A stretch of DNA of 64,000 nucleotides from Eledone cirrhosa (taxonomy: Eukaryota), in assembly GCA_964016885.1 (NCBI GenBank), contig OZ024744.1, positions 64,046,001-64,110,000 of the forward strand, read 5' to 3'. Within the stretch, counting starts at the first letter, position 1. Each line of letters begins with the position of its first letter. Under the pieces are notes generated by a model that ran no database searches, had not been told where the DNA came from, and saw only the letters and a program-made list of their open reading frames with translations. Positions 2,911 to 64,000 of the stretch are shown in pieces. Both the position numbers and the translations under genes were made by a program.

Positions 2911-4135
2911 AGTTTTCTACACTGACGAGATATGACTGAGACATATGACTGAGATATGACTGAGACATTGATGGGGGATACCCCAAAATGCACCATGAAC
3001 ACATTCGTTCTACATGACTGGAGAGAAATGCCAGACATTGTAAAACTGCCCAAGGGAGACACATATGTTCACAAATGGCATGATCATTCACTAAGAAAAC
3101 GATTAACAAATGTTTTCATACACGACAACTTGACGGTGATAGTATCATATTCAACTGAAGATCAGTATTTAAAGAAATATCTACAGACAAAGACATTACA
3201 TGGGATGGTTGCCTAGACATCTCCATGAGACCAAATTTCAGTACAGCCAACACAGATGCTCCTATCTTGGAGTGAATTTTAACAAAAAAGGGGAAAAAAA
3301 AATGAATTTTTCACAATCAACAATATATATTGTGTACTGGGTGCATTTTAACTTGGCACCAATACTAGGGAGGTTGTCATGTCTTTGACATGACTAAAAT
3401 GTCTTCTCAATCCTTTTTGGGTTTCTATGGCTTGATGCTCTTCATAATGCCAACTATTGTTGGTCATTGACTTGCCTGAAGAACCCTCTCTACCCTATGT
3501 GGGGTGGAATTGTCCTGTGTTTAGGGAAATGGAAGGGAACAAGTAAGAAGAATGATAAGTATGATGTCATGGATAAATTATAATTGGTAACTGAGAAGGG
3601 ACAAACGATGTCATGAGTGTAAAGAGGATGAAGTGAGGAAGAAAAGGGGTAGGAAAGTTTGTCATGGGTGTATGACAATTGTGGTGGAATTTGACAGGGT
3701 GATGTGAAGGAGTAAAGAAGTGGAGCTTATCTCATATAAAGTGGGAGCAGAGAGTGACTATGGTGATGATAAAGAGCTATGACTGGTGTGGTGGGATTTA
3801 ACAGGGTGAAGTAGAGAAGAGAGTAAGAGTGATCCTGGATAAAATGGGATGCTCAGTTGGGTCTACATTTGTAATTATATAGGAATAAAATATGAACATT
3901 GTCCAATTTGTCAATATATCTAGTAGTTTTCAGGTAGTTACACTGGAGTTTCTTTGGAGTTTTTACAAAAACTGGACATCTCCCTATCATCAACTATTCT
4001 GATAATTTGAGTGAGATTTATCTTTTTTTAAATATACAATACAAATTCTCAATTCTAATAACATTGTTAATAAATTAATCAAAATGTTTCATCTTATTTT
4101 AAAATATTTTATTTCACATCTTTTTTCTGTTTCAG

Positions 4136-4304
4136 AGAAGAGGATATACTAAGAGAAAAACTAATTTTGGAGGATGATGGGATACTTGAGGAAATCAGGA
4201 AAAATAAGAATGGTTCTTATTATATTGGAGGTGTTGACGTTTCATTCCAAGATAATGGAAAAGCATGCATAGCTCTCGCTGTTATAAGATTTCCAGATTT
4301 AGAG
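4136..4304 (+). CDS. ENDOV: Endonuclease V exon (EEDILREKL...YIGGVDVSF...FPDLE)
   Basis: ttcag acceptor and gtaatt donor; GGVDVSF motif with the first catalytic Asp, matching human ENDOV GGVDVSF...FPELE. Confidence 0.95.
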
Positions 4305-4556
4305 GTAATTTCAGTCTAGAAATTTCCGCATTCTGACAAAAGTATCTCATTATTCCACATTTTTACAAAAATATCTCATATTCCACCCTTTATGAGGGTG
4401 GTGGATTAGCAATAATGGTAGAGCGTTGAACACCATGCTTTGTGGCATAGAGTTACAGCCCTTTCTGTATTCAAATCCTGCCAAGGTTAGCTTTGTCTTT
4501 CATTCTTCTTAAAAGCCCTTTTAAAAACCTATAATCAAAGGCATTTCCAGACCTAT

Positions 4557-5005
4557 CTAGGGCGGGTAAAATTTCCGAGGGCGGATAAAATTCCTGAGAT
4601 CCATGGACGAGTTCTCTCCGGCGGTCTCTGTCCCTCATTATCGCTGCCATGTCCTGCGTCTCCAACAGACCAGTGTCTGTCCTTAGGGCATCAACATACG
4701 TTAACCTTGGTCTTCCTCTTCCAGTGTGCCCATGTAGGGGCTCCCACAGGAGCACTGAGTGCAATGTCAACTCTGGATGTCGGTGAGCATGTCCGGCTAA
4801 CCTCAGTCTCCTCTGTGTCACTTTTGAGCTGACTTTTGGGAGGCTCCCATACAGCTCTGAGTTTTTCATCCTCAGTGAATACTGATTAATGTTCAGAGCC
4901 ATCCTCAGCATTCTCATGTAGCACCCATCCACCATCTGAGTGAGTTTCTTGGTCAGTGTCCAAGTCTCAGACCCGTACAGCAGCACAGACTGCACTACAG
5001 ACCTG
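4557..5005 (-). mobile_element. RTE-clade LINE 3' fragment (second family)
   Basis: ORF 4471-5055: VLLYGSETWTL...RRLRLAGHAHRH...GRGRPRLTYVD, a typical RTE C-terminus. Confidence 0.9.
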
Positions 5006-6297
5006 CCAACCTCTAAAAGCCCAAATAGGGAGTACCATGAAAAAAAGTGCCCCACAATGGGGAGATTTTACATAATGAAAGTTATACCCATTTTCACAAG
5101 AAAAGACATCTCTCACCCACCCCAAAGTGGGTGGGTGATCTCCCCGCCGGATGGAGAGAGTTGACAGATCTGCATTCCAGTCATGACTATCCTGTCTTCT
5201 GTATATCTATAACTAAAATTATCCAATACCATACATTCCTACATGCTTTCCTCCCTTCTTAAAAAGAGGAAAAATCAAATAGTTTCAGTGAGGAGAGGTA
5301 AAAATTGTACACATGATCTTCATAAACCCTCCCTGATTGGTTAGATTGATGTGGTTGATGCTTAATTTGAACAGTTGCAAATGAAAACCTGTAGAAAAAA
5401 GTAACGATATAACAAAGGAGCCTTTATGTAGTCACTTGACCTTCTAGAAATAGCAACCAAATGTTTCCCAAATAATACCCTACTGTCTGGCCATTGGGTG
5501 TCTTTAACAGGCTTAAATCTGTTGCGAGCATTTGGCACAGGTCTCTGGTTTCAGAATAACTTTTTTTTTCCCTCCTATTTGCCTCAGAGGCTCTGAAAAA
5601 CAAAAGTGTTATAAGCACTGCTTGTCCCTCCTTCATTAACTCATTATCCACTTCATTATAATCATTTTACGTCTGTTTTTCATATTGGCAAGGGCTAAAC
5701 AGTTGTCATGGTTTGAGACTAGACTGGTCAGAGGAACACATCTTGCTTATATATTCCATATTTAGGCATGGTTTCTACAGCTGTACATTCTTCATAATGC
5801 CAGTCACTTGCAGAGTGTACTGGGTGTATTTTATCATGGCATCTGTTCTAGAGAGGTTGTCATATTTTCAGCCAAACTGAAGAATCCCCTCTATCCTATA
5901 TTGCCTTTGTTCCATCACTAACCATTTTACAGAGGCATCATCACTAGAAAGGTTCTCAGGTACCCCTCATGTACAGAGGGTTCTCCCTACTCTATATTGT
6001 CTTGATCATTTTAGGAAGTCTGAAGGCACCTCTCATAACATTTACTTGTAGCATCACAGTGCTTGTACTATTGGCTGGGTATTTTGTATTATGGCATATC
6101 ACCATAATTATAGAAAAGGTAAAAAAAAGAGTAAAAATCGTCATGAGTCAAAATAAAAGAGTAGAGTAGTCATGCCTGGAATGCATGGGTCTACATGATT
6201 GAAGCTCTTCTGGCACTAAACAGCAATGTAGATGGAGAATATATTTGTGGCTTTCTGTTAGAAACCAATATGACTTAACTTTTGTGTATTTCTTCAG

Positions 6298-9025: not shown

Positions 9026-9506
9026 ATATGTAAATTTATATAATAAAAGGAATTCCAACTTAGATTATCACATCTTTATTTTAGACATAGTGTATCTAAG
9101 ACTATATTATCCAATGTGTCTTTTCTTTTTTTTTTTTAATTAAAGGAGATTTGGCTGCTATGTCTAGCAGCTCAACTCTCCATAGCCCCTCCCCATTCTC
9201 CAATGGCTTGCTTACATTACAGTTGTTTTAAATACAAAAAAAAATGGTTTGGCAGTATTTTCTTGTTTGTTGTATTGTTAAAAATCACTATGACTCATTG
9301 ATGAGAACTGGGGGAGATTTGGCTGCTTTCTCCAGCAGTTTGAGTGACTACAAAAGTTCTTACATTGCCTTGTATACATATATGTCTTAGAGATACTGCT
9401 TTAGGGTCGTCATTTTGCACCAAATTCCACATACACTGTAACAACAACAACTAACAAAAGTAGTTACAAGATTTGTTTAAAAGTTTCATTATATTTTCTT
9501 CAACAG

Positions 9507-12019: not shown

Positions 12020-12895
12020 GAAGGGGTGAACAACCAAGCCAACACCAGAGCAGTACTGGGCAACCTCTCTAATGATTTTTGAGGCAAGCCAGCACACTTG
12101 CAGCGTTGCTTCGGGTGATGGCGAGACCTATGTGCTGAAACAGCCAAGTGCCCTCGTGAGATTCGCAATTAACTCTATTAGGCAAGCCGCCAGTGAAGAG
12201 AGGAACCTCGCAGTCAGCGGCCCGACTCTCCCAAACTTCTCAAAAGCCACAGCTTGAAAAATGTAGTTGGCCGACAGATCAGAGTATTTGAGGGTCTTAC
12301 TCCGCTCGGCTGCAGAAGCTGTGGCTCTCGTCCTAACCGCAGCAACCAGGATGTGGGAAAGAGCAAAAGAGTCACTAACAGTGACGTCCCAGACAAGGCA
12401 CCTGCCTCTCGACCAGGGGCACAGGGTAAGGCTGTCATTTCTGGTCAACCCAGATGGTTCCAAGACTGAGAGGATATTCGCCCGGGCCAAAGCTCTCTTC
12501 AGAATGAGGTTTAGCTCCGTATGACGCACGAAGCGGCCGGCATTCAGGCGGCAAGAAAGACCGCGGAGGCCTGTGGAGTCGAGGAGTTTGCCGCATCGGC
12601 ACCTCAAACCCATGCAGACGTCAGCTCCCACTCTGAGGGCGATGGAGACATAAAATTCGTCCAGGCTGAGTAGGCCACCAACGTTGGCCATGGGTAGGGC
12701 ATCGACCCAGTCACCTGAGTATTTGGCACTGGCAGATAGTAAGCGGCACCTTGCAAACTGATCTGACTGGACGAAGAGGGAGTCAAAGGTAGCCTTCGAA
12801 CTTATGCTGTCCCAAGTTCTCTGACTTCGACTGTCCGTCACCTTCTCAGGAAGAGACAAGCCCAACTCACTCCATTGTTGGAGAGCTTCACCCAA
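12020..12895 (-). mobile_element. CRE-like non-LTR retrotransposon 3' part (CCHC knuckle plus restriction-like endonuclease)
   Basis: ORF 12128-12895: CRCG...LSC, RHTELN, LEP, WDVT, AExSKxxKY, as in RLE-type LINEs. Confidence 0.85.
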
Positions 12896-17589: not shown

Positions 17590-18035
17590 CTCCTCTGTTA
17601 TGGCCTGAAGAACTATAATGAACAGCAGTGGGCTGAGAACAGAACCCTGATGAACTCCTATCTGTACCTTGAATTCTTCACTAAACTCGCTACCTACTCT
17701 CACTTTACTGACAGCTCCTCTGCACTGTTCTCACAGGCCATTCTTCTACACCTAATTTTCTTAAGGATTGAGGTACTCTGTCAAAAGCCTTTTCTAGATC
17801 AACATAAGCTAAATATAGTGGCTTATTCTGGGCTAGGAACTTCTCTTGTACTTGTCTCACTAAGAAGATGGTATCTGTAGTACTTTTTCCAGGCATGAAA
17901 CTGAACTGCATCTCATCTAATTTGACTCTTTCACATATTAGCTGTGCTAGAGCTCTTTCTGTCACTTTCATAACTTGGTCCATTAGTTTTATTCCTCTGT
18001 AGTTGTTCCTTTCTAGAGCAGCACCTTTACCTTTC
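17590..18035 (-). mobile_element. RTE LINE RT fragment
   Basis: MQFSFMPGKSTTD...AYVDLEKAFDRVP. Confidence 0.88.
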
Positions 18036-19097
18036 TTCTACTAACTCAAATCATCCAAAGATTTGAAGGCCATTTCAAATCTAGGTTGACAAATAAATAA
18101 CTCTTATAAGTACTCATTAGATATCTTCCTGTTTTCCCTGTTTACTTGTCATCAATATCAAAATGAACAGGTATGAATGAATTTATGCTGAGGACTTAAA
18201 ACAGGTTAACCAAGTCTTCATGGACATAACCCAATTTACCAAAATTTATTTAACGTTATTCAAACAACAATGGCAACACATGTTGACTTACATATGTATA
18301 TACAATCTTACAATCATATATTACATTCATCTCACAACTGCTAAATTTGCATTATGTAGGGCATCATTGAACCTCACATATATTTAATAATTGGTTCTAG
18401 ACAACTGGCTGGGGTCGTGTGTGTGGATGGATGTCTGTGTATGTGTGTGTCATCATCATTTTTTTCATTTCATTTTTACGTCCGCTTTTCCCTGCTTGCA
18501 GGGGTGGGACGGATATGATTTTGGCTTGATTTCTACAGCTGGATGCCCTTCCTAACACCAACCTCATTTACAGTGAGTGCTGGGTGCTTTTTTGCCGTGG
18601 CACCTGCACGACCACTTTGCAGTGGAATGATATGGACCCCAGTCTATCATCTCATTTCTACAGCTGAGTAAACTGGAGCAATGTGAAATAAAGTGTCTTG
18701 CTCAAGGAAACAACACATCACCCGGTGTGAGAATTGAACTCACAACCTTTCGATTGCAAGGCCAATGCTCTAACCACTAAGCCATGTGTGTGTATACATA
18801 TATATTGTCACAACAAAAAGCACCCAGTCCACACTGTAAAGTGGTCGTATAGATGTCATGACAAAAAACATCCAGCACACACTGTAAATGAGGTTGGCAT
18901 TAGGAGAGGCATCCAGCCATAGAAAACCAGAAACAGTCCTCTATGAGCAAGACACGGTCACTCGACCCAACTTGCCTCAAATGAGACAACCCATGCTAGT
19001 GTGGAAAATGGATGTTAAACGGTGATTATGATATGTGCTATTAAAGATATAATAAATGGTTTCATTCTAAAACTGATTTTATATTGCTTTATTTTAG

Positions 19098-21947: not shown

Positions 21948-24900
21948 AAATGAAATGATTACAAAGGAGAATACATACTGTTAGAACATGTTTATACAAA
22001 AGCACCTACGTACGTTTTGCCCGAACAGGGCTTCTCAAGGGCATACAAGTCTAGAGAGTGTTCATTACAGGACCCAGAAGGGTTTTTTTAGCGATAGTCA
22101 CATCAAACCCACTGCACAACACCTTGCTAGACTCTTTTGAGGAGGACCTGCTCAAGTTGATCAGAAACATTAAGTTTAGGAACAAACACTGATGCAGTAA
22201 TCCATTCTTAACATCCCTGGACGCGCTCATCACTAAGATCAAGAATGACCCACACCTCTTCGTTACCTCTGACAAAACCAAGAAGCTGTATAAGATGGAC
22301 GTGAGTAAGTACAAACAATTCATTTATAACGAATTACACAAAAATTATAAAAAAACACCCATTAATACCTTAAATGACATTAATAGAGTAGGGAAGGATA
22401 TAGTGAATAGCTTAGACATAGATAAGAACACTAACCCATATGTCCCTATGACACCTAGATTCTCTCTTAAGGATCACAAATGTAACTTTAATGAAATCCC
22501 CTCTATTAGATTAAAATGTCCCTCTACATCAGATATAGGTAAGATTAGTAAAGTAATCCTCAATAGAGTAATACTTGAACTCAATAGCAAAGCCAAGGTC
22601 TGTCTCTGGAGCAACACCGACCAAGTCATTAATTGGTTCACCGAGCTGTCTGATAAGACAACTCTAAAGTTCATCTAGTTTGACATAGACAGCTACTATG
22701 CCTCTATCTCCCCCATACTCTTAAACAAGGCCCTTATTTTAGCTAAATCTAACACTAGCCTCACTAAAAAAGAGATAGATATAATATTAGCAGCGCGCAG
22801 AACTATTATTCAGTTTGAGGGTTCCCATTGGACCAGAATCAACCGTCCTGATAACTTTGATATCATGATGGGGTCTAGCGACTCGGCGCAAGCGACCGAC
22901 CTGGTTGGAATATACCTCCTCCATAGACTTAGGGACGAGATCCTGGTCCTACAAGGTGTATATAGGGACGCCGCCCTATTTACCATTAGAAACCATAGCC
23001 CCCGCAGGATTGAGAACCTTAACAAGTGCATACACAGGTTCTTCAAGCCATACGGTCTATCCGTAACTATAGACCTCAACCACCAGATAGTCAACTTCCT
23101 GGACGTGACCCTGGAGTTGGGTACGGGCCTGTACAAGCCATACCATAAGCCCGGCGAGATTCTATCATATATTAATTATGCATCTAACCACCCTAAGTCT
23201 ACTCTCAACTCCATAGTATATAGCATATCCCATAGGATCTCGAGGCTGTTCGCCAACGAGGACATCTTCAACCAAGCGGCCGACTACTACAATAAAGCCT
23301 TGGTAGATGCTGGATATAACCAGAGAATCTCCTACCTCCTTAATGCTAACTCTAGAAACCACCCCCATCATAGGACTAATGTTATAGTAAGCCATACCTA
23401 TAACCGAATACGCAGCGCTCATGATAGAGTCAATAACTATAGTATAGAGAATCGCTCTAAGAAACACGCCCGTACCGTTAACTACATGGGTGGTGGTGTA
23501 GAAGACCTACCACATAATAAGGGTCATGATACGGGCAACGGTAGCTGCTGTAGCCTACTAGAACTATTCCTTACCTATAAGATTAACAATAGCGATGGCC
23601 TATTACCTATACTCTCCAACCGGCATTTAGCTACATGTAAACGTAACGGAAGGAAGGCGCATGCACCCGAGCATAAAGCGAAGGGGACGCGCGGGAGGCT
23701 TCAGCACAGTAGCAACAATAAGAATGCTTACCTAGCCAACACGACCCATAGTAAGCCCACAGCTATGCGTAACCGCCAACGTAATGTCCTATGGTTCCAT
23801 CCTCCCTACTCTTGGAGTGTGGCCTCTGACTTACCCAGGATATTCTTCGAAGCCTTAGAGAAGAATTTCCCACCCAACCACAAGTACAGAAAAATCCTAA
23901 ATAAGAACAATATGAAAATATCCTTCTCCACTACACCTAATCTAGCAGACATCATAGGGATAACTAATTACAGTAAGCTCAACAAAGCACGGCACCATAG
24001 CAGCGATAGGTCTAGACTTGACAGCAACCCTAATAGCCTTAACGTTTCCCTAGCAGCACTCGACAGTGTTGGCGGCAGCTCCAACAGACGCAACCGACAC
24101 AACCGCAGCGAGACTGGGCAGCATACTGGTGACCTGTACATGTCACGAGGCGGCCATAGAAGGCGGTGTGGCGTGCGGAGTGATAATGATACTACCCCGC
24201 ACGCCATAGGATATAATAGTACTAACTACAGAGATAGTGGCGGTGGCGTGGATAATAACATAAGTAGTGATAGTAATGGCCTTACTTCGGGCACTAGGAG
24301 CCATCGTAGCGGCAGAGACCGTGACCGACAATGCAACTGTCGAGATCAGGGAAGCTGTCCACTCGGGAAGTTGCCTGACAGATAATGTTATTTATAGGTG
24401 CACCATAACTAGCCATGATAGCGTCAAGCAGTATATAGAGGCCACCTCTGGCTCGTTCAAAACTAGATTTCGAACACATCTCCACTCTTTTAAAAACAAG
24501 AAGCTAAGATACTCCACGTCACTCGCCAACTACATCACAACATTAAAAGTCTCCAACATTAGCTTCTCCACATACTAGGAAATTGTGAGCAGGGCAACAC
24601 CGTACAACTTCAAGAGGAAGTGCGAGCTCTGCCTCATGGAACTTTACCATATCATAAGAGCACCCCTAGAGCCCATCAACAGCAGAACAGAATCTGTGAT
24701 AAACTGCAGACATAGAATAAAGCAGTCGTTCTATGGTTGGACCCCGGTTGAGAACTGAAGACCACAAACTGGGTCCCCCTGCACCAAACCATAACGCGCC
24801 AGTGGGTAGGCTGTACACCAACTATGCCTCTCAGATCCGGCCTGACTGGGCAATAGTAAAGTAGCACCCATAAAATAGTAATGGAAAACACATCATGCTA

Positions 24901-28237: not shown

Positions 28238-29094
28238 CAATATATAACAGTTTTACAAATAAGCTTTGACGTACCCTATTAAAATGCAACCATTGTTTTT
28301 GGAAGCCATCCGGATAGTGATTTGTTTATATTACTTTAATAAGTCATAGTGTTAAGGACAATTAGAAAAAGACGGAGAGAAAGAAAAAAACGTGGAGAAA
28401 TATCGGAGAGAGAGGGATGCATGGAGAAAAAAGAAAGAGATAAGTAAAGACAGGAGGAAAGGAAGAAAGAAGAAAAAAGGAAGAAATAAGAAAAACAGAG
28501 GAAAGCAACAGAGAGATATTAAGTCAACAGACAGATAGAGAAATATTATATATATAGAGAGAGGGAGATTATGAAAACTTTACGTCATGTCATATTAAAT
28601 TGAGTTAACAATTCATATGAAATGAATAATAAAAATATAAATATTAATATTCATGAATGGGACATAAATATATAATATGAGAAATTAAACATTGTTTAAT
28701 AATGACTATATGTTTAGTTTAAACCTTGAGATCAATATACCAAAATTTGGGTTTAATCTCCAAAATGTACACATTGCTAGAGAAGTCAGTATCTCAGGCA
28801 AAGACACACAAATATATATATATATACACGCACGTCCTGAAAATAGAAATTATATTTACTCAAGTCAACAATATAGACATATAAAACGCAGATGATTTCT
28901 CTTAATCACTGCTATACATTCCTTGTGTTATAAAAAGTTCACAGTATATATACATAAATATATACGATTAACATTCATGTCTTCATATATATGATTACCA
29001 TTCATGCATTTAACATTTTGTTAAAATTATGCATATCTGCAATCCAAACTGCGTGGTTATGGATCATAACTCTTACCCACACATATACATATAC

Positions 29095-30440
29095 ACCTAT
29101 ATCATCCCAGGTCATCTTGGGTCTCCCCACTATGCGGTTTTCATTGACTTCTAGTGCTCTGCACCTGTTTATGCAGCTGTCATCCTTCATACGCATCACA
29201 TGTCCATACCAACGCATCCGCCTCTCCTGCACACAGCATTTGATTCCTCTTATGCTCAGTCTCTCTCTCAATTCCTTTATGCTTTGTCGTTCATGTATAT
29301 TACTGTTACACATCCATCGGAGCATGCAGGCTTCATTTCTCTCCAATCTACGCAAGTCTTCCACCTTCAGCGCCCAGGTCTCACTACCATGCAACATTGC
29401 TGTTCGGATACACGCATCATACAGTCTGCCTTTCATTTTGAGGGAGAAGCCTTCTGCAGCTAGCAGTGGTAGTAGTTCCCTGAACTTCTTCCATCCCGTT
29501 CTTACCCTAGTTATTGTACTTTCTGAACACCCACCTCCGCTGCTAATTCGGTCACCTAGGTAGCAGAAGCTGTCGTTTGTCTCTACAGAGCCCTCCCAAA
29601 GATTGGTGGTACTTGTTTGCTGTGGCTGTTTGCTGCTTGCTGTCCCAGTACAGCTACTGCATGTGAAGCCTATATTCTTAATTAAGCTTCCTGAGATCCT
29701 GCTACATCTCTTGTGTACCCATTGTTTGCATTTGGGGCAGAGAATGGAGTTCCTACCTACACCTTTCCTACATACTGAGCAAGGCCATTTCCCTGAGGGG
29801 ATCTGGGTTCTGTTTTCTCGTCTACTTACAAGGACCTTAGTTTTTGTCATGTTGACTTTGGGACCCTTTCTTTCTAGTCCCTGCTTCCAAGTTTGGAATT
29901 TCTTCTCTAGTTCTACCATAGATTCAGCTATAAGTGTGAGGTCATCAGCATACAGGAGTTCCCATGGGCATCCGGTCTTAAATTCCTCCGTTATTGCCTG
30001 CAGGACTATGATGAACAGGGGAGGGCTAAGAACAGAGCCCTGGTGGACACCAACCTGTACGCTAAATTCCTCGCTATACTCATTGCTAATCCTAACTTTG
30101 CTGACTGCTCCCCTATAGATGGCTTGTACAGCTTTCACAAGCCATTCATCTACTCCTAGTTTTCTAAGAGCCCACCAGATTACAGCACGTGGAACTCTGT
30201 CAAAAGCTTTCTCGAGATCGACGAATGCCAGGTAGAGTGGCTTACTTTTAGCTAGGTACTTTTCCTGTAACTGCCTCACAAGGAAGAGGGCATCAGTGGT
30301 GCCTCTTCCTGGTACAAACCCAAATTGCATCTCATCTAGTTTCACCCAGTCCCTAATCAACTGTGCTATAACTCTTTCTGTTACTTTCATGACCTGGTCC
30401 ATCAGCATTATACCTCTATAGGTTCCTCTATCGAGTGCAT
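29095..30440 (-). mobile_element. RTE-clade LINE RT fragment with intact frame and an embedded C4HC3 zinc finger
   Basis: 468-aa ORF: QFGFVPGRGTTD, DLEKAFDRVP, GVHQGSVLSP, LLYADDL, CSVC..CPKC..HKRC..CSSC, YLGD, LHGSETW, GRPKMTW. Confidence 0.95.
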
Positions 30441-30446
30441 CATATA

Positions 30447-30522
<76 letters not shown>

Positions 30523-32713
30523 GGGAGAGACAAAGAAGGCCTTGTTTAGAAACAGCTAGCGAATTTAAAAATTAGCTAGTAACATGTGCTTATGCCGTAT
30601 TTGACTATATAGAATTAGTAGGTATATATATATGTATATAAATACTCATCCTTTTTTCCATTCAGAGGGTTTTTTAAATCTCAACTAACAGACTAATTCT
30701 CTTCCAATTTTCCAAATATATCTTTAGCGGTTAAGTTATATTATAGTTAGTAGCGCCACGAGTAATTAGTTTGGCAGAAAGATGTGGTAAGAACATCAAC
30801 AATGACTTTGTCTTGTTTTACATTATTTATTAACAAGGTTGAGCTGTGTAGAGCTGAGTAGAGCAGGCATGACAAGAGTAATAAAACAAACGAATTAAGA
30901 ATTTCAGAAGGCACGGTCTACTGGCTGAAGTGTTGCCAGGGCGTGGTTAAGTTGTTGTGTTACATGAAAGACGACAGCTGTATAACAAAGTGCAGGGCAA
31001 TAAAGATAGACGGTAGCCACGGAGTAGACAGACCCAGAAAAACATGGGACGAGCTGATAAATTCCGACCTCACACGCTTACACCTCTCCAAGACAATGTC
31101 ACTGGACCGAGACTTTTGGCGGTACTCAGTAATAGAGAAGACCCGCCTTACCTAAATACAAAGTAAAAACCTACTACAGTCAGTAGGCATCTCTATCAAA
31201 ACACACCCCCGTCCCACCACCTCCACCCCATCCACACCGCCCCTTTCAATGTAAAGTTATGTTGGTCCCACAACATCCAGGCCGAAACAAATGAGATCGT
31301 GTAGGTGTCACGACAAAAAAACACACAGTCCACGCTGTAAATGTGGCCGTGTAGGCAACACGGTAAAAACCTCCCAGCCCCACACTGTAAATGTGGTTGG
31401 TGTTAGGAAGGGCATCCAGCTGTAGAAAACCCGCCAGACAGTCCACGCTGTAATGTGGCCATGTAGGCAACACGGTAAAAACCTCCCAGCCCCACACTGT
31501 AAATGTGGTTGGTGTTAGGAAGGGCATCCAACTGTAGAAAACCCGCCAGACAGTCCTATGCGAGCAAGACAACCACTCTTGCCTCAAGTGGGAAAACCCC
31601 CGTCCAAACCCATACAAGCGTGGAACACGGACGCTAAACCTGATGATGATGATGATGATGTTACATGTTGGCTAGTGATTTCACAGTGAAAGAAAGTTAG
31701 TTGTTTACCTTTTCACAGTCAGGATGCAAGAGACAGATTTCTCAAATCAACGCGGGAATTTTTCCCTCAGGGCGCGTAGAGATACATTCTCCTCCGCTGG
31801 CGGTCATTGGCTGGGCTGAGCCAAATAACGCACAGAGAATGTATGTGAGCCCACGGAATGTAGGTCACTACAATACCCCCTCCTAGTCATAAGACGATAC
31901 AGATTATTGAATCAGTAGGGAAAAATGCTGAAAGAGCACATCAGTGAAAAAATAATTGAACAGAAGGATGCATGCAAGAAAAAAAATGAGGCGCTAAGGG
32001 CCATGTTGAGCCGCTGTGTCAAATGACTAGCTGATTTGTAGTTTATACATGACCACCAAGGGTCTAACAGAAAACGGATAAAGTCTGACATGGGCGAAGT
32101 TGCTGTTCTCGCATTAAATGTTAATGGTAAGTGCTGTACCAGTAGCTGTGGGTGAAGCTGTTATGGTAGTTTACCAGTGCTGGCAAGAAGATGATGGGTA
32201 GGCGAGAAAATGTCGGCCGCCCAGATGTATTGCCGAAAGTGCTAGGCAGCCAGGAAAAAATGGCTGATTGCTTTGAAAAGAAAAAAGCAAGTTGAATCTG
32301 TAGGTGGGTAGTAGTTGAAATATAAATTCCATAACTCTGGCGAATCCATAGAAATGGTGGAAATGCTGACAGGTCCAGTTCCATTTGCTGTTTTCCCAGT
32401 GAGTCGGGTAAAGTAACAAGATGGAGGTTGAGTGTGCAACGATATGCGAAACTGTTTGAATCCAGCTGCAATTAGCATTCTCGTGTTGCGGTGCAGGTGA
32501 ATTAAGTGCATGGTTGAGATCAGCTCTAGCAAGCTCTACCCAGCTTTTTTTTTTAGTCTTCCTCTTTTGTGGTTACCTTCCACTGGTGTCTCCTGGCACT
32601 TCTTTGCCAAACAAACATCATCCTTAAGCATTATACCAGCATGGTTTTCTCATTGCACACTATATCTGATTCCTCTCATGCTTTTTTTTTGTCTCAGTTC
32701 ATCCACCCCATCA

Positions 32714-35700
32714 TGGTACCAGCACTACCACTTTACAGAGTTGACTCGGTGATTTTTGTTGTCATCAGCACTTTATAAGTTTGACTGTATGCTTATTGTT
32801 GAGGCACCAGCACTACCACTTTACAGAGTGAACTGAATGTATTTTACTGTGGCACCTACACTACAACTTTACAGAGTGGAGTGGATGTATTTTACTGTGC
32901 CACTATCACTACCACTTTACAGAGTGGACTGAATGTATTTTACTGTGGCACTATCACTACCACTTTACAGAGTGGACTGAATGTATTTTACTGTGGCACT
33001 ATCACTACCACTTTACAGAGTGGAGTGGATGTATTTTACTGTGCCACTACCATTACCACTTTACAGAGTGGAGTGGATGTATTTATTGTAGCACCATAAC
33101 TACCACTTTACAGAGTGGAGTGGATGTATTTATTGTAGCACCATAACTACCACTTTCCAGAGTAGAGTGGATGTATTTTATTGTGGCACCATAACTACCA
33201 CTTTCCAGAGTAGAGTGGATGTATTTTATTGTGGCACCAACACTACCACTTTCCAGAGTAGAGTGGATGTATTTTACTGTGGCACCAACACTACCACTTT
33301 ACAGAGTGGAGTGGATGTATTTTACTGTGGCACCAACACTACCACTTTCCAGAGTAGAGTGGATGTATTTTACTGTGGCACCAACACTACCACTTTACAG
33401 AGTGGAGTGGATGTATTTTATTGTGGCACCAACACTACCACTTTACAGAGTGGAGTGGATGTATTTTACTGTGGCACCAACACTACCACTTTACAGAGTG
33501 GAGTGGATGTATTTTACTGTGGCACCAACACTACCACTTTACAGAGTGGAGTGGATGTATTTTACTGTGGCACCAACACTACCACTTTACAGAGTGGAGT
33601 GGATGTATTTTACTGTGGCACCAACACTACCACTTTACAGAGTGGAGTGGATGTATTTTACTGTGGCACCAACACTACCACTTTACAGAGTAGAGTGGAT
33701 GTATTTTACTGTGGCACTATCACTACCACTTTACAGAGTGGAGTGGATGTATTTTACTGTGCCACTACCATTACCACTTTACAGAGTGGAGTGGATGTAT
33801 TTATTGTAGCACCATAACTACCACTTTACAGAGTGGAGTGGATGTATTTATTGTAGCACCATAACTACCACTTTCCAGAGTAGAGTGGATGTATTTTATT
33901 GTGGCACCATAACTACCACTTTCCAGAGTAGAGTGGATGTATTTTATTGTGGCACCAACACTACCACTTTCCAGAGTAGAGTGGATGTATTTTACTGTGG
34001 CACCAACACTACCACTTTACAGAGTGGAGTGGATGTATTTTACTGTGGCACCAACACTACCACTTTCCAGAGTAGAGTGGATGTATTTTACTGTGGCACC
34101 AACACTACCACTTTACAGAGTGGAGTGGATGTATTTTATTGTGGCACCAACACTACCACTTTACAGAGTGGAGTGGATGTATTTTACTGTGGCACCAACA
34201 CTACCACTTTACAGAGTGGAGTGGATGTATTTTACTGTGGCACCAACACTACCACTTTACAGAGTGGAGTGGATGTATTTTACTGTGGCACCAACACTAC
34301 CACTTTACAGAGTGGAGTGGATGTATTTTACTGTGGCACCAACACTACCACTTTACAGAGTAGAGTGGATGTATTTTACTGTGGCACCAACACTACCACT
34401 TTACAGAGTGGAGTGGATGTATTTTATTGTGGCACCAACACTACCACTTTACAGAGTGGAGTGGATGTATTTTACTGTGGCACCAACACTACCACTTTAC
34501 AGAGTGGAGTGGATGTATTTTACTGTGGCACCAACACTACCACTTTACAGAGTGGAGTGGATGTATTTTACTGTGGCACCAACACTACCACTTTACAGAG
34601 TGGAGTGGATGTATTTTACTGTGGCACCAACACTACCACTTTACAGAGTAGAGTGGATGTATTTTACTGTGGCACTATCACTACCACTTTACAGAGTGGA
34701 GTGGATGTATTTTACTGTGCCACTACCATTACCACTTTACAGAGTGGAGTGGATGTATTTATTGTAGCACCATAACTACCACTTTACAGAGTGGAGTGGA
34801 TGTATTTATTGTAGCACCATAACTACCACTTTCCAGAGTAGAGTGGATGTATTTTATTGTGGCACCATAACTACCACTTTCCAGAGTAGAGTGGATGTAT
34901 TTTATTGTGGCACCAACACTACCACTTTCCAGAGTAGAGTGGATGTATTTTACTGTGGCACCAACACTACCACTTTACAGAGTGGAGTGGATGTATTTTA
35001 CTGTGGCACCAACACTACCACTTTCCAGAGTAGAGTGGATGTATTTTACTGTGGCACCAACACTACCACTTTACAGAGTGGAGTGGATGTATTTTATTGT
35101 GGCACCAACACTACCACTTTACAGAGTGGAGTGGATGTATTTTACTGTGGCACCAACACTACCACTTTACAGAGTGGAGTGGATGTATTTTATTGTGGCA
35201 CCAACACTACCACTTTACAGAGTGGAGTGGATGTATTTTACTGTGGCACCAACACTACCACTTTACAGAGTGGAGTGGATGTATTTTACTGTGGCACCAA
35301 CACTACCACTTTACAGAGTGGAGTGGATGTATTTTACTGTGGCACCAACACTACCACTTTACAGAGTGGAGTGGATGTATTTTACTGTGGCACCAACACT
35401 ACCACTTTACAGAGTGGAGTGGATGTATTTTACTGTGGCACCAACACTACCACTTTACAGAGTAGAGTGGATGTATTTTACTGTGGCACCAACACTACTA
35501 CTTTACAGAGTGGAGTGGATGTATTTTACTGTGGCAATATCACTACCACTACCACTTTACAGAGTGGAGTGGATGTATTTTATTGTGGCACCAACACTAC
35601 CACTTTACAGAGTGGAGTGGATGTATTTTATTGTGGCACCAACACTACCACTTTACAGAGTGGAGTGGATGTATTTTATTGTGGCACCAACACTACCACT

Positions 35701-36490
35701 TTACAGAGTAGAGTGGATGTATTTTACTGTGGTACCAACACTACTACTTTATCACAACACTGATATCAAGAAGTCCTCTTGTGAACGTGACCTGGGCATT
35801 ACTGTCAGCAGCGATTTGCATTGGACAAAGCACATCTCTAAAATTGTCAAGAAGGCTGAGGGTGTCTTGGCATCACTCAGCAAGACCTTTGTTAGCCGCT
35901 CTCCAGCCATCTATAAAAGTGGATGTATTTTACTGTGGCATCAACACTACCACTTTACAGAGTGGAGTGGACGTATTTTACTGTGCCACTACCACTACTA
36001 CTTTATAGAGTGGACTGGATGTATTTTACTGTGGCACCATCACTACCACTTTACAGAGTGGACTGGATGTATTTTATTGTGGCACCAACACTACTACTTT
36101 ACACAGAGTGGATTCGATGTATTTTACTGTGGCACCATAACTATTACTTTACAGAGTGGGCTGTGTGCAGTTTACTGTGGCACTATCACTACCACTTTAC
36201 AGAGTAGTCTGTGTGCAGTTTAAGTGTGGCACCATAATTACCACTTTACAGAGTGGACTGGATGCATTTTACTGTGGCACCATCACTACTACTTTACAGA
36301 GTGGAGTGGATGTATTTTACTGTGGTACCACTATTTTACAGTGGTACCATCACTACTACTTTAAAGAGTGGACTGTGTGCAGTTTATTGTGGCAAAAGCA
36401 CTATCACCTTACAGTGTGAACTGAGTGATTTTTGCCATGGCACCAGCACTACCACCTTGCAGGGTAAACTGGGTGCTTTTATTTGTGACA
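32714..36490. repeat. 48-bp tandem satellite (gtggcaccaacactaccactttacagagtggagtggatgtattttact) with higher-order repeats
   Basis: Contiguous 48-bp units, homogeneous centre and degenerate edges; variant blocks recur at 718 and 958 bp spacing. Confidence 0.97.
35751..35917 (+). mobile_element. CR1/L2-type LINE RT fragment inside the satellite
   Basis: Translates IKKSSCERDLGITVSSDLHWTKHISKIVKKAEGVL..LSKTF, the ERDLG...W..H motif of CR1-group RT. Confidence 0.8.
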
Positions 36491-38929: not shown

Positions 38930-39170
38930 AAATAGAGGATTGGGTTTTTTTTTAGAGTCTAACAGACAAAAAAGTTTATCTGAACTACCAACTTGAGACA
39001 TCATAGCACAAAGGCTCCAGATCAAAATTAACAAATAACTTTCGGGAAGCTTGTGTAAACGCTAATACACACACACACATTATATATATATATAATCATA
39101 TGAATGCATATGTATATATATATATATTATATATATATATATATATACACACACATATATATATACGTAC

Positions 39171-39221
<51 letters not shown>

Positions 39222-39946
39222 CATGTGTGTGTGTGTGTGTGTGTGCAAGAAATGGGGTGTTCAAATGAAAAAAATAAAACTTAATACATATATTAGTTTG
39301 TTAATTTATTTTGAAGTTGAAGACTCAGCATTGAATAAATGATTGCGTATGCATGTCTAGTTTTAAACTTTTCAACTAAATTAGATGAAGCAGCATTTAT
39401 ATGTTCCTAAAGATAAATTAAGTTTAAAACTGGCAATATATTTAATTTGATGACATTTTTACAATTTTTTGTTTTTATAACAATATTTTATATTTAGTTT
39501 AAATATAAGATTTTTAAGATTTAAACAAAACCATAAAAAATATTTAATATGAGGGTTAAATCAGTCAGAATTATTAAATTAGTGAAATTTACTCTGGCTC
39601 AAAAAGATCTTTTGGGGATTGTTGTGCTGTAGTTAGCAACATTTAATATCAGTTTATATACATAGATATCAACATAAAATCTATAAAATAATATCTATAA
39701 TATCTATAAAATCTTTTTCTAGTTGTAAATATATATATTCTCAAAAGCAATAATTTGTATAAGAGTGTAGATAAAACATATAAGGATATATATATATAAT
39801 TTATTTCAGTATTTCAGATGTAGATTATCGTATATCAAGTCATGTATGAAAATATTTAATTAATTGAAAAAAAAAAATGAATCCCTCCAGAAAATTTATA
39901 CTCCTACCAGAATAATTTCTAAAATATGTATATGACAAAGTATTAT

Positions 39947-40099
39947 TTAACTAGAATGGCGCATCTTTTCCAAGATAGGGATAATCATATCAAACTTTGG
40001 GCGGCGGCCTGGTTCTTCATTCATGCAAATCTTCAGGAGTTGACTCATGTGTGAAGATATTCCTGGTGGAATTTTGATTCTTAAATCTTCCAGTGTAAT
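39947..40099 (-). CDS. ILK: ILK last coding exon ([18 protein letters not shown]...[18 protein letters not shown])
   Basis: ctcag acceptor; matches the human C-terminus IPPGISPH...KRPKFDMIVPILEKM; TAA stop. Confidence 0.96.
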
Positions 40100-42653: not shown

Positions 42654-42784
42654 CTTCATCCCTATCTCCATTGGTGAAAGGTCTGCAAAAGGCACCTCTC
42701 TTGTCTCCATTTCCCACAGAAGAATAGCATAGCTCCACATATCTGCAGCTTTTACATTCATCTCTTCAGGTTTTTTCTGTAGAG
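42654..42784 (-). CDS. ILK: ILK exon ([44 protein letters not shown])
   Basis: ttgaag acceptor and gtaatc donor; near-identical to human ALQKKPED...[15 protein letters not shown]. Confidence 0.96.
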
Positions 42785-44480: not shown

Positions 44481-44580
44481 CTTCTGGAGCCATCCATGCT
44501 GGGGAATAAATCTTTCCTCTCTCGTGAAATGAGAAACGGTAGTCTGCCATGTTAATTCTGGCTGTCAGATCTTCATCTAT
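44481..44580 (-). CDS. ILK: ILK exon ([33 protein letters not shown])
   Basis: ttatag/gtaaaac sites; matches human IDEDMTARISMADVKFSF...PAWVAPE. Confidence 0.96.
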
Positions 44581-53704: not shown

Positions 53705-54712
53705 CATACACGCACACATACACACAATCACACACACACATTCATGCACACAAACTAGCTGTAAGAATAGATAGAAAAAGAACATTTAAAAAAAAAATTA
53801 ATATTACTAATAATATTGTTGATAATTATATTTCTGATAATAATTAAAATAAAATTGATAAAGAGAAAAAAGGAAAATAAAATGATGACAACTGTGATTC
53901 GCATATCACAACCCGCAGTGTCTCTCTAAGATTCTAAGGCATCAGCAAGACAGCCATAAGAATTAAAATACTAAAGGAATTGGTAGTGCTGGTGGTGGGA
54001 GAATTAAGAAAAAAAACAACAAAAAAACAAAACAAACAACTATAAGTAAATACATAAAATAAAATAAAGCACTACTGACTGCAATAATCTAATAATAATA
54101 ATAATAATAATAAAAATAACAACAGTAATAAAAATAATGGTTTCTGATTTAGGCACAAGGCCAAATATTTGAATGGGGACAGGAAAGTCGATTAAATCGA
54201 CTCCAGTACATTGCTGGTACTTTATTTTATTCACCCCGTAAGGATGAAATACAAAGCTAACCTCGGCGGGATTTGAACTCAGAATGTAAAGGATCGTAAC
54301 TCTATGCCACAAAGCATGTTGTCCGACGCTCTACCGGTTCTGCCAATCCAATAATAATAATAATAATGACAGTGATGAGGATAATGATGATGGTGGTGGC
54401 CGTGGTGCTGATGATAGTGATGATGGTGATAGAGATGATGACAATAATAATAATTAATAACAATATATAATAAATAATTAATAATAATGATAATAATAGT
54501 AATACTAATAATAATAACTATATCAGTACTAAATAAGGTGTTAGTATATATATATATGTGTAAGTAAAAAATATATAAATAAATAAAAAGAGTTAGTAAT
54601 ATGGCATAGTGGTGGCTGCAAAATGGTCAACTAAACTGCATGAACCATAGTAATAATAGTAGTAGTAGTAGTCATAACACACAGGCACAAAAACAAATGT
54701 ATGTTGTTTTAC

Positions 54713-54784
54713 CCCGTTGATTGCGACATCCCGAGCAGAATACTTAGGATCATCGATATTTATTTTAGCCAGGTCTTCATCAAT
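54713..54784 (-). CDS. ILK: Candidate alternative ILK exon, paralogous to exon 44481-44580 (IDEDLAKINIDDPKYSARDVAING)
   Basis: ttctgttttag acceptor and GTAAAAC donor; 72 nt, phase 0-0, no stop; homologous to [17 protein letters not shown] with mostly third-position differences. Confidence 0.7.
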
Positions 54785-56935
54785 CTAAAACAGAATATAG
54801 TTATCACAAACACACACACACAAACACACTGAGAAACAACAAACAATAATGATGAAATAATAAATGAAGATTTCTGAATTTAGGCACAAGGCCAGCAATT
54901 TGTAGGGAGGGAGAGAGAGAGGAGAGAAAGTCAATTATAGTGACTCTAGTACTTTTACTGGTACTTTATTTTATCAACTCCTGGAAGGATGTAAGGTAGA
55001 GTTGACCTTGATAGCAGGGATTTGAACTCTGAATGTAAAGGGTCGTAACCTGATGCCTCAAAGCACTTGGTCCGATGCTCTAACACTCCTGTCAATCCAC
55101 CTTCCTTCTTGATGATAAAAACATAATGATAAGGTTCTAATGATGGAGGGTGGAGAATTATTAAGTATGAGGTGTTGGCATATAGAGGTTGGGAAAAAAG
55201 ATTATAATGTGTGTGTGTGTTTGTGAAGTAGTTTACTTAGAGATAGTATAAAAATGTAGTGCTACATGCACTTGTGCATTTTCTTTTCTTTTCTTTTTTT
55301 GTCAGAGAGGGAAGGGTAGTTCCTCTGATCCATCTATTTCAGGGTCTCTTTGTCTGGTGAAAGGGAGTGAGATAGGAAGGTATCCTTAAACTAGAAACCT
55401 ATCCCAAGTGCTTGTAACAAAGTGGCCTTCGCTAAAGGTATCCAAGGGCCGATTGGTGACATTAAACCAGGTGACAGATTAAGTTAATCACCTAAGTAGG
55501 CCACAGTGGGATTTGAACACAGAATGCAAAAACCAGAACGAATACTATTAGGCACCTTATGTAATGCTTCAACAATTCTGCTAATGCAATACATTGCAAT
55601 GATTTGGTATTTTATTTTATCAACCCCGAAAGGCTGAAAGGTGAAATTGGCCATAGTGAGATTTGAACTCAGAATGCAGAGATCTGAAACAAATACTGCA
55701 AGAAGTCATTGTCCTATGTTCTAACAACTGCACAGATAAGAAGATGCAAGACTAGATTCAATGTACTTATTATATTGATAAAGTGGGTTGATATCAGGAG
55801 ACAGTACATAAGTAATATAGTATCGCATGTAACAGTATTGGTGAGTAGAGATAAGAGCCACATATATGATTGGGAGGAATAGAGATAAGAGAATGCCTTG
55901 CACCACATGTTAGATATATATAGAAGAAGGTACATGTTAGATTGAAGTAGTCTAATAGTTTGGTGTTTTTGTCACTGTATAGTAGAAGAGATAGTCAAAT
56001 AGAATAGTGAGAGTGTGAGTGTGTATCTAATAAATATATACATATACATCAGGTCCGAACACAAAGGAACCAAACTCCCACTGTCACTGCCTTCATTTCT
56101 CACTATTATGAAACAATAGGGGCCCACATGCTGGCCACCCTGCTGTTCCAGGTGGATAGAATAGAGAAGGCGTTTCCCCAGAGGATGGTGAGGGAGATGC
56201 ACTAGAAGAACCACGTAGCTAAAGAAGCTATTTAAAATCATGTAACAATGTTACATACTAAATATTTAATTGATAATAACTATTGATTAAATAATGAAGG
56301 TACATGACTTAATGGTTAGGCTGTTAGGCTCAAAATCATAAGGTCATGAGTTCATGAAATCATAAGGTCATGAGTTCATCATAAGGTTCATGGACCTGAT
56401 GCTACATTGTGTACACATTGCTTCAGTCAATCCATCATAAAAAATATGAGCATCACTAGCAGCTAAGGGTTAATGGTGTCCTGTCCAAGCTGGGTTGAGT
56501 CTGGTATTCTCAACTGCTTAATGCCTAATGAAACAGGAATAAGCTCTAGACAGATGAGCCTTAATGTTCAAGAAATACTTTAATTAAACAAATTTAGAAG
56601 TTGTGCTTGGCTGGCAAGTGACTTGATCTGAGACTGTGTTGAAATTAAAACAATTACTGTGTAGATGAATCATTTTAGCCATTTTAAACCACACAAAACT
56701 GTTAACTTATATATATATAGATAACAAAGATACCAGGTGGACCAAAACGCACCAGAGTACTCAATACATAGGGTAGTAAAGTGGGTAATTTGTTCGGATC
56801 TAGCTGTCGAAACGGCCGGAGCTCAGTTGTCGGGGTCCTGACACTTTTTCATATATATATATATAATAGAAGGCTGTCCAATGCCTTGAGCATGAATTTG
56901 GTAGACAGAAACTGTAAGGAAGCCTGTCATATGCA

Positions 56936-59552: not shown

Positions 59553-59674
59553 CATGACGTGTTTACTATTAACGGCAATATTTGGTATCATGGGTTCCAT
59601 GGAGTGAAGAAACTCCATACCTCTTGCAATATCCAAGGCAAATCTCAAAGCTTGGTTTTGATCAACAACAATAT
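59553..59674 (-). CDS. ILK: ILK exon ([27 protein letters not shown]...NSKHVM)
   Basis: aatag/gtaagt sites; matches human [22 protein letters not shown]; degenerate catalytic loop (IAVN) typical of the ILK pseudokinase. Confidence 0.96.
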
Positions 59675-59978: not shown

Positions 59979-60460
59979 ACTTTGCTCGCTGTTTATAAAC
60001 AAAGCCTGCTTTTTATCTCTCTATAACAATGACAAGTGTTTTAAGGCCATCTTTCCCGATAAAGCATAAGTTAGCCTTGTGAGTCCCACTGACGAGCTTC
60101 TTCATTTTCCCCTATCATCTACATCCCACCTCACCAACTTTCATCTGGCTTTCATTTCCCCCTCCATCACCCTCAGCCATGTCTTTCTTGGTCTTCCTCT
60201 TCTTCTAGATTAATTTCCCCCCCCCCCCCCTCCCCACATTTTCATCTTTCTTCAAATGATCCAACAACCATCTTATTCTATTCCTCTTCTCAACATTCAT
60301 TACTGGTTCTATTTCCATCATTCTCTGTGATACATTGTTAAGTCTGAAATAATTAATAAGTTCAATAAATCACTCAAAATTCTTCAATAAATAATTGAAA
60401 TAGAGTTTATTTCATGAGAAATATAGTATAGTCGCAAAATGGTTAAAGAAGGAATTTTAC

Positions 60461-60582
60461 CTGTTTCTCCATGAAGGACATTATAAAGTGATCCATGAAC
60501 CATATATTGACTAATAACGACCAAGTTGGGAAGCTCATTACAACAGGCCAAAACAGGAAGAATATTGGCATGGTTGAATATC
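60461..60582 (-). CDS. ILK: ILK exon (IFNHANILPVLACC...GSLYNVLHGET)
   Basis: tttcag/gtaaaa sites; GSLYNVLH motif; phases consistent. Confidence 0.95.
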
Positions 60583-60624
60583 CTGAAAAATTTAGCAATA
60601 TAGCATCAGAAATACACACCACAC

Positions 60625-60990: not shown

Positions 60991-61268
60991 CAAATGGATT
61001 AATGTGTGTGTGTGGCCATCATTAATAAGAATACATTAATACATTGAAACAACACAACACTATATGAAAAAGCTGATGATAACAACGACAGTGACAGCGA
61101 TGGTGGCGAAAATGATGATGATATGTAAGAAGTAAAAATGGACATTAGATGATGATGATGATGATGATGATGAGTAAAATAAAAGTACAAATAATCTCAA
61201 TAACTTAATCTGCCATAAAAATGTAGATTAAAATAAGGTGGTGATAACAAGGGATTGTGGATCCTTAC

Positions 61269-61378
61269 CTCAATCGAGGAAATTCTTCTTGAAAATCACG
61301 AGACATTCTTAAAGTACACTCCCTCAACTTTAGTTCTTTGGCTACAATTTCACTCCCTTGCCAAAGCCCATGCAATGT
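61269..61378 (-). CDS. ILK: ILK exon ([16 protein letters not shown]...[12 protein letters not shown])
   Basis: cttag/gtaagg sites; VAK lysine and SRDFxEExPRLR as in ILK. Confidence 0.95.
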
Positions 61379-63779: not shown

Positions 63780-63865
63780 CAGACCTGAATGGGAGTTAGC
63801 AAGTGCTTGTGAGAGTTTTAGTTGTGAAAACTTAACACCTGTATACCTGGATAATGTAGCGTCTC
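63780..63865 (-). CDS. ILK: Integrin-linked kinase exon (DATLSRYTGVKFSQLKL...NSHSGL)
   Basis: ttcag/gtaagt on the - strand; matches human NGTLNKHSGIDFKQL...NHSGEL. Confidence 0.92.
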
Positions 63866-64000
63866 CTGAAATACAAAATTGAAGGTCATTTTACATAATT
63901 TTATATCAATTCCATATGAAATAAACAAAATAGAATTGTTCTGTATTCAAAACCACTATGGTCTACTTTGGCGGTTGGCATAATTTGTTGACTGGTTTAA

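Follow-up and report, generated by a model that had tools for sequence, protein, structure and literature searches.

The ILK gene of the window

Few adhesion scaffolds are as conserved as ILK, whose pseudokinase core is generally regarded as fixed. In a stretch of 64,000 nucleotides of Eledone cirrhosa DNA, hereafter the window, a reading of the sequence alone had pointed to a hidden duplicated exon within the ILK gene and proposed that it rewrites the DFG and activation segment of the pseudokinase. We asked whether this exon is real, what protein its inclusion yields and how widely it is kept.

Comparison with human ILK (phmmer, E 4e-105) indicated that the host protein, composed of N-terminal ankyrin repeats and a kinase-fold domain, is orthologous to ILK/PAT-4, with a degenerate catalytic loop and a DxK motif replacing DFG; AVNSKH and DYR in the window align to ALNSRS and DVK of the human protein. 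The ILK exons of the window were 76-100% identical to Octopus sinensis ILK over the tblastn matches, which identifies the animal as an octopod. The gene occupies about 71 kb on contig C28 and extends past the window to G000:C28:64156779, and a genome search, whose counts are lower bounds, found at least one complete set of ILK exons. The window protein shares with human ILK in complex with alpha-parvin (PDB 3KMW) the ankyrin repeats and the pseudokinase, its canonical exon being intact. In human ILK, D339 is described as holding Mg and K341 the gamma-phosphate (PMC4718504, PMC3014569), and K341 as relaying to R349 at the parvin interface (PMC8933812). Human residue numbers are counted here from D339 in the alignment to human ILK. 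The features of the locus are as follows.

about 63783-63869, 61268-61378 and 60459-60587, minus strand: three further upstream ILK exons (tblastn limits)
59553-59674, minus strand: upstream constitutive ILK exon, ending ...NSKHVM, with the catalytic-loop equivalent and the start of beta7
54785-54810, minus strand: 3' splice acceptor of the cassette, T-rich tract and TTTTAG
54713-54784, minus strand: alternative cassette exon, 72 nt, AG..GT, phase 0-0
54706-54712, minus strand: 5' splice donor of the cassette, GTAAAAC after GGG
54593-54712, minus strand: intronic read-through frame, 39 codons and a stop, not conserved
54592-54597, minus strand: first ACTAAC motif of putative Quaking/ASD-2 type, +116 from the donor
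54540-54545, minus strand: second such motif, also a putative binding site, +168 from the donor
44481-44580, minus strand: canonical ILK exon, 100 nt, phase 0-1, parent of the duplicate
42654-42784, minus strand: next ILK exon, 131 nt, phase 1-0
39951-40099, minus strand: last coding ILK exon, stop codon included

The cassette is a partial duplicate of the canonical exon

The cassette lies in the 15-kb intron separating the exon that ends at 59553 from the canonical exon 44580-44481, which carries the end of beta7, beta8, DYR (DVK in human ILK), the activation segment and APE. Translation of window positions 54784-54713 on the minus strand is stop-free and gives IDEDLAKINIDDPKYSARDVAING. The 72-nt exon with its clean acceptor was confirmed as previously read, and all seven donor bases, GTAAAAC, are identical between cassette and canonical exon. 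Alignment with a one-codon gap revealed that 10 of the first 16 aligned residues are identical, with a nucleotide identity of 29/48, and 7 of the 10 matching residues use a different synonymous codon in the two exons; six of these had been listed before, the seventh being TCT/TCA. The BLOSUM62 local score of 41 between the two was reached by none of 20000 shuffles of the cassette and was the highest across the six frames of the 15-kb intron, the runner-up scoring 34. Chance likeness and an assembly artefact were both rejected.

Being adjacent, homologous beyond chance and of the same 5' phase, the two exons constitute a tandem exon duplication, and the cassette duplicates in part the ILK beta8/DFG (DxK) exon, namely its first 16 codons. 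By alignment, DPK of the Eledone cassette would be the counterpart of the canonical DYR and of human DVK. The order of exons seen in the window was also found in loci L008, L011 and L014.

Long and short isoforms in four phyla

The 24 cassette residues are present in RefSeq isoform X1 of both O. sinensis (XP_029648883.1) and O. bimaculoides (XP_014769821.1), identical letter for letter to those of the window, and the exon can no longer be called hidden. The cassette motif was carried by 53 of the 412 collected proteins. In 23/23 species pairs, drawn from Mollusca, Brachiopoda, Nemertea and Annelida, the cassette is all that distinguishes the long form from the short one. The pairs comprise 3 cephalopods, 10 bivalves, 4 gastropods, including two species of Patella, and one more Mytilus group entry, together with a chiton, Lingula, Lineus, Tubulanus and Owenia; the long forms of the chiton, the brachiopod, the two nemerteans, Owenia, a cuttlefish and an oyster were found as cluster-mates of short forms and not via the motif. 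Ridgeia likewise carries the cassette. Inclusion and skipping forms thus occur within the same species in every database pair, Eledone being known from the genome alone, and the tandem inclusion of 24 residues, one of several outcomes proposed earlier, is what these pairs show.

A search with the 40-codon read-through gave 11 proteins from 405 candidates, namely ten ILKs (nine named as molluscan and one unnamed) and one fragment, while the Owenia cassette region as query gave 4 matches among 9 candidates, all of them molluscs already in the set. No verbatim cassette was present among the 50% representatives in the 150 matches listed, and the ESM Atlas gave no usable match to the cassette. The cassette was absent from arthropod, priapulid, crinoid (echinoderm), fish and bird ILKs among the matches listed, as judged by annotation only (15 of 40, 15 of 17 and 15 of 22 in the larger clusters). 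Mollusca, Brachiopoda, Nemertea and Annelida were already separate by the Cambrian. Taken over their sequences, the cassette is identified as an ancient, lineage-wide optional exon of ILK shared by four lophotrochozoan phyla, a wider scope than the sequence-only reading had given it and not one of cephalopods alone.

The lophotrochozoan records XP_029648883.1, XP_014769821.1, XP_013399637.1, XP_064636790.1 and CAH1777358.1 represent the identical event. They are automated models, and no paper was found on its origin, conservation, regulation or function. A literature search in which most subscription papers were outside reach found no published description of the ILK cassette, and the accessible text of the SmILK paper (PMC5289644) makes no mention of any insertion. 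The isoform is apparently undescribed in print although already in databases by automatic annotation; the previous statement that no such ILK isoform is known exaggerated its obscurity.

Transcript evidence and retention of the canonical exon

RefSeq X-isoforms are usually based on RNA-seq. Whole inclusion reading frames of 474-477 aa were found on Logan/JGI contigs of 1.6-2.3 kb (P0172, P0175, P0033 and P0010), which are too short to hold the introns and must be transcripts. Nine metagenome loci carried the cassette motif; eight are genomic and one, L010, is a cDNA in which the upstream exon is spliced onto the cassette acceptor. The homologous exons, whose comparison had been proposed on reading the sequence, retain frame and splice sites: AG stands at the acceptor position in 8/8 genomic homologous loci, GGG/GTA closes the cassette in 10/10 cassettes examined, and the length of 72-81 nt is a multiple of three in 10/10 loci. 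Spliced contigs are known for both long and short forms. Contig counts of short versus long forms were 116 versus 3 in the squid/cuttlefish-type cluster and 285 versus 2 in C. gigas, which suggests that inclusion is restricted, the counts being no measure of it since assemblies drop rare variants.

In 49/53 cassette-bearing proteins the cassette runs straight into the full canonical exon, and the remaining 4/53 continue into intron-derived residues. Since the canonical exon is retained in the long form, the DFG-equivalent is not replaced, and the notion that the duplicate rewrites the DFG and activation segment finds no support.

Constraint on the cassette peptide

All collected cassettes together contain 5 distinct 15-mers at codons 1-15, followed at codons 16-24 by a variable linker that mostly ends in G, the whole cassette measuring 21-27 aa. 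The cassette keeps the equivalents of I327-L331, A333, I335, N336, D339 and K341, lacks T332, and fixes K334, I/V/F337, D338, P340 and Y342. Among 144 distinct canonical ILK segments, D338, P340 and Y342 each occurred 0 times and I/V/F337 once; the corresponding zero for the T332 deletion is a product of the filter and no evidence. Because D338, P340, Y342 and I/V/F337 are foreign to the canonical slot, the cassette is under a constraint of its own and is not a drifting spare. Codon differences from the window amounted to 5-9 synonymous versus 0-2 non-synonymous per locus, the latter number being biased low as the loci were found with the motif. The earlier view that the tandem duplication is old and constrained at the coding level was right, and the cassette is very probably conserved and functional. 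Its DPKY may resemble the NPxY motifs of integrin tails.

The K341 equivalent of the cassette is K in 32/33 cases and R in 1/33, while in these animals the canonical copy has K15, R9, C4, V2 and single T, S and Q. In a separate comparison of canonical segments, the K341 equivalent was K in 75/83 ILK segments without Y/H340 and in 34/61 with Y/H340, the latter mostly lophotrochozoan (canonical DYR, region of window 44541-44543), hinting at a possible relaxation of ATP-site constraint in the clade that carries the cassette.

Predicted structure of the long form

An AlphaFold model of the long form, built on a 120-row alignment, had a mean pLDDT of 88.5 and placed beta7 at 322-326 and beta8, taken from the canonical copy, at 352-357, while residues 331-349 were mostly under pLDDT 50. 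Superposition on chain A of 3KMW gave a TM of 0.96 and an rmsd of 1.5 A. The cassette is thus predicted to protrude as a loop, between beta7 and beta8, from a fold that stays intact. About 90 of the 120 rows lack the cassette and are aligned on the second copy, which biases the model, so that it shows looping-out to be compatible with the fold and not to be preferred. The inclusion-only AlphaFold run gave a C-lobe pLDDT under 50 for residues 270-474.

P0211 and P0216, two unnamed divergent ILKs among the 50% representatives, have 26-27 aa inserted at the junction that the cassette occupies elsewhere, and it is their second copy that retains the beta8 pattern. They possibly represent a lineage in which inclusion became fixed; their inserts scored 0.3 bits or not at all against the cassette HMM. 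The start of the second copy is decayed in both.

CTAAC motifs downstream of the cassette donor

Two ACTAAC motifs follow the cassette donor of the window, whereas none follows six other ILK donors; two or more such motifs occurred in 23/991 windows. Over ten loci, CTAAC behind the cassette donor was seen 9 times versus 1.25 expected. After removal of two close relatives, CTAAC was the top of all 1024 5-mers in the eight remaining loci (8 seen versus 1.36 expected, in 6/8 loci), a rank that is borderline after correction (p 8.6e-5 x 1024) and concerns a motif first noticed in the window. CTAAC followed 6/9 genomic cassette donors versus 0/26 other ILK donors (Fisher p 5e-5), about three of the 26 being probably false pattern matches and two locus pairs being close relatives. 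CTAAC/CTGAC also fits the branch-point consensus. RBFOX-type TGCATG was not found near the window cassette and was present in 3/10 loci (p 0.07).

A cluster of CUAAC/ACUAAY in the proximal downstream intron is the sequence arrangement of STAR/QKI-regulated exons, and a STAR_dimer gene is present in the genome of the window. STAR proteins act in glia and other cells as well as in muscle. CUAAC has been reported as the binding element of the muscle factor ASD-2, and ASD-2/SUP-12 acting on it as causing intron retention and a switch of 3' ends in unc-60 (PMC3469465), while QKI bound downstream is reported to accompany exon inclusion in cardiac cells (PMC9122611). Like these STAR-regulated muscle exons, the cassette has CUAAC/ACUAA within 200 nt past its donor; it is likened to them by this sequence motif alone, the literature search having found no lophotrochozoan case. 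The CTAAC motifs behind the cassette donor suggest muscle-type regulation.

Interpretation and alternative explanations

The explanation that we consider rather probable is that of an optional ILK exon by which, probably in muscle, an intact pseudokinase domain would gain a surface loop. The first cassette residues would complete beta7, and the canonical exon would remain the source of beta8, of the nucleotide site (DxK) and of the activation segment that contacts parvin, so that the binding of ATP and parvin may be kept in the long form. The AKINIDDPKY stretch and the linker would project from the beta7-beta8 hairpin, the invariant part of the cassette acting as a putative docking motif for a partner protein. 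A STAR-family protein of the Quaking/How/ASD-2 type would promote inclusion from the downstream CUAAC in a minority of cell types, with muscle the likeliest, which would give adhesion-site ILK one extra binding surface.

A different use of the same protein, doubtful but deserving weight, is that the DPK of the cassette takes the beta8/DxK slot, or that the two copies toggle, so that the canonical activation segment with its R349 equivalent is pushed out by 24 residues and the coupling of ATP to parvin is altered. The cassette copy stands immediately after beta7 and retains 10/16 positions, including the equivalents of the Mg-binding D339 and the gamma-phosphate K341, from which a path to R349 and parvin is described in human ILK (PMC8933812). 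K341, moreover, varies less in the cassette than in the canonical copy, a difference that the surface-loop explanation does not account for. Against this register stand the residues D338, P340 and Y342, never seen, and I/V/F337, seen once, in the 144 natural slot sequences, the need for a hairpin shorter by one residue, the AlphaFold model with the canonical copy in the slot (from a biased alignment), and the divergent insert-bearing ILKs, which retain the beta8 pattern of the second copy. The stronger form, in which lophotrochozoan muscle ILK has two interchangeable copies of beta8 and DxK, would fold in either register and has been kept since the Cambrian as an alternate-frame switch that links the ATP site to, or disconnects it from, the activation segment to which parvin binds, is less probable still.

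Other explanations place the effect of the exon at the level of ILK output. Inclusion, or the form that reads through or retains the intron, might mainly lower the amount of ILK by way of a less stable or C-lobe-truncated protein, the peptide mattering little. The spliced records L010, P0401 and P0188 do read from the cassette into the intron, in the window the cassette and read-through make 63 codons with an AATAAA at about 54231, some 360 nt past the read-through stop, and the retention and 3'-end switching attributed to ASD-2/SUP-12 on CUAAC in unc-60 offer a precedent (PMC3469465). The tails are, however, unrelated between species, so that the records look like partly spliced, unproductive or minor RNA; the 186-nt tail of L010 has no poly(A) signal, and no Pfam family was found in the 40-aa read-through of the window. 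The read-through proposed earlier appears in these few records, its frame not being conserved. As the frame is kept in 10/10 loci, and 15 residues are near-invariant in four phyla with the excess of synonymous codon differences given above (the non-synonymous count biased low), such dampening is improbable. Still further down we place the use of the cassette instead of the canonical exon, with a frameshift and NMD or an in-frame deletion of the C-lobe. The frameshift arithmetic is correct, joining 42784 giving LYRKNLKR and a stop; tandem duplicates are described as often mutually exclusive (PMC9013439); and NMD targets would be under-represented among proteins. The cassette, however, is 3n in 10/10 loci (72 nt, 0-0, in the window) versus 3n+1 (100 nt, 0-1) for its parent, these phases forbid a clean substitution, and the APE half of the parent exon is lacking. 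Unlike mutually exclusive exons, which would match in length modulo three and in phases, the two stand together in 49/53 proteins; replacement of the canonical exon was seen in 0/53 cassette-bearing proteins, and no frameshifting or C-lobe-deleting form, including the proposed joining of the cassette to 40099, was among them.

Comparison with other duplicated exons

Tandem duplicated exon substitutions described elsewhere (PMC9013439, PMC8373072, PMC9741552) share with the ILK cassette adjacent homologous exons that are ancient and conserved; as far as these accounts go, the ILK copy differs in being partial, in being added in tandem and in having phases that forbid substitution. The closest concept is the H2d-H2a exon of vertebrate COE/EBF, described as a clade-specific tandem duplicate beside its parent that repeats one secondary-structure element (PMC2394523). 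In that account inclusion became mandatory, whereas both ILK forms persist in 23/23 pairs and the repeated element is a core strand of the kinase fold. Human ILK2 and ILK3 are described with changes in the N-terminal, ankyrin and PH-like parts; the available part of that source describes no beta7-beta8 insertion, unlike the lophotrochozoan long form (PMC8799556).

A near-invariant optional insert beside the nucleotide motif offers a natural tool for the role of the ILK ATP site and its cross-talk with parvin. For Lophotrochozoa the cassette also offers a derived character held in common, and it is a conserved candidate for STAR-directed splicing in animals whose muscle splicing programmes are barely mapped.

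Other observations

Further inserts were noted in bivalve ILKs. The oyster proteins P0189 (Crassostrea virginica XP_022325071.1) and P0063 have, precisely at the cassette junction, another insert of 7 residues, which likewise begins with ID and is possibly a microexon; a pattern-limited search of the 15-kb window intron did not find an oyster-type microexon starting with ID. In P0020 (Argopecten) and P0038 (Mytilus), alternative inserts of 6 and 9 residues follow residue 176, where two exons meet within the linker that precedes the kinase domain.

A processed ILK retro-fragment, with the spliced exons for residues 35-121 at 96-97% nucleotide identity, lies at L003:3023-4024 (G000:C3, about 252447.0-252448.0 kb) and adjoins a copy, 757 bp long, inverted and 93% identical, of window 39065-39817, a segment just past the ILK stop and probably 3' UTR. 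This retrocopy is inverted, internally deleted and without the kinase domain; considered as a witness of inclusion, it is silent, the kinase region being missing.

Elsewhere in the window, long frames at 22193-24382 (plus strand) and at 29005-30555, 12131-12895, 17708-18037 and 4474-5067 (all minus strand) resemble by eye remnants of retrotransposon reverse transcriptases, and a large minisatellite array at about 32800-36400 gives rise to long repetitive open frames. Frames at 4074-4316 and about 9350-9420, both on the plus strand, resemble what we take to be exons of an endonuclease V-like gene. An apparently intronless gene with ankyrin repeats and a kinase domain, whose 859-codon frame is 27% identical to the ILK kinase domain, was found at G000:C4:6927780-6929579 on the minus strand.
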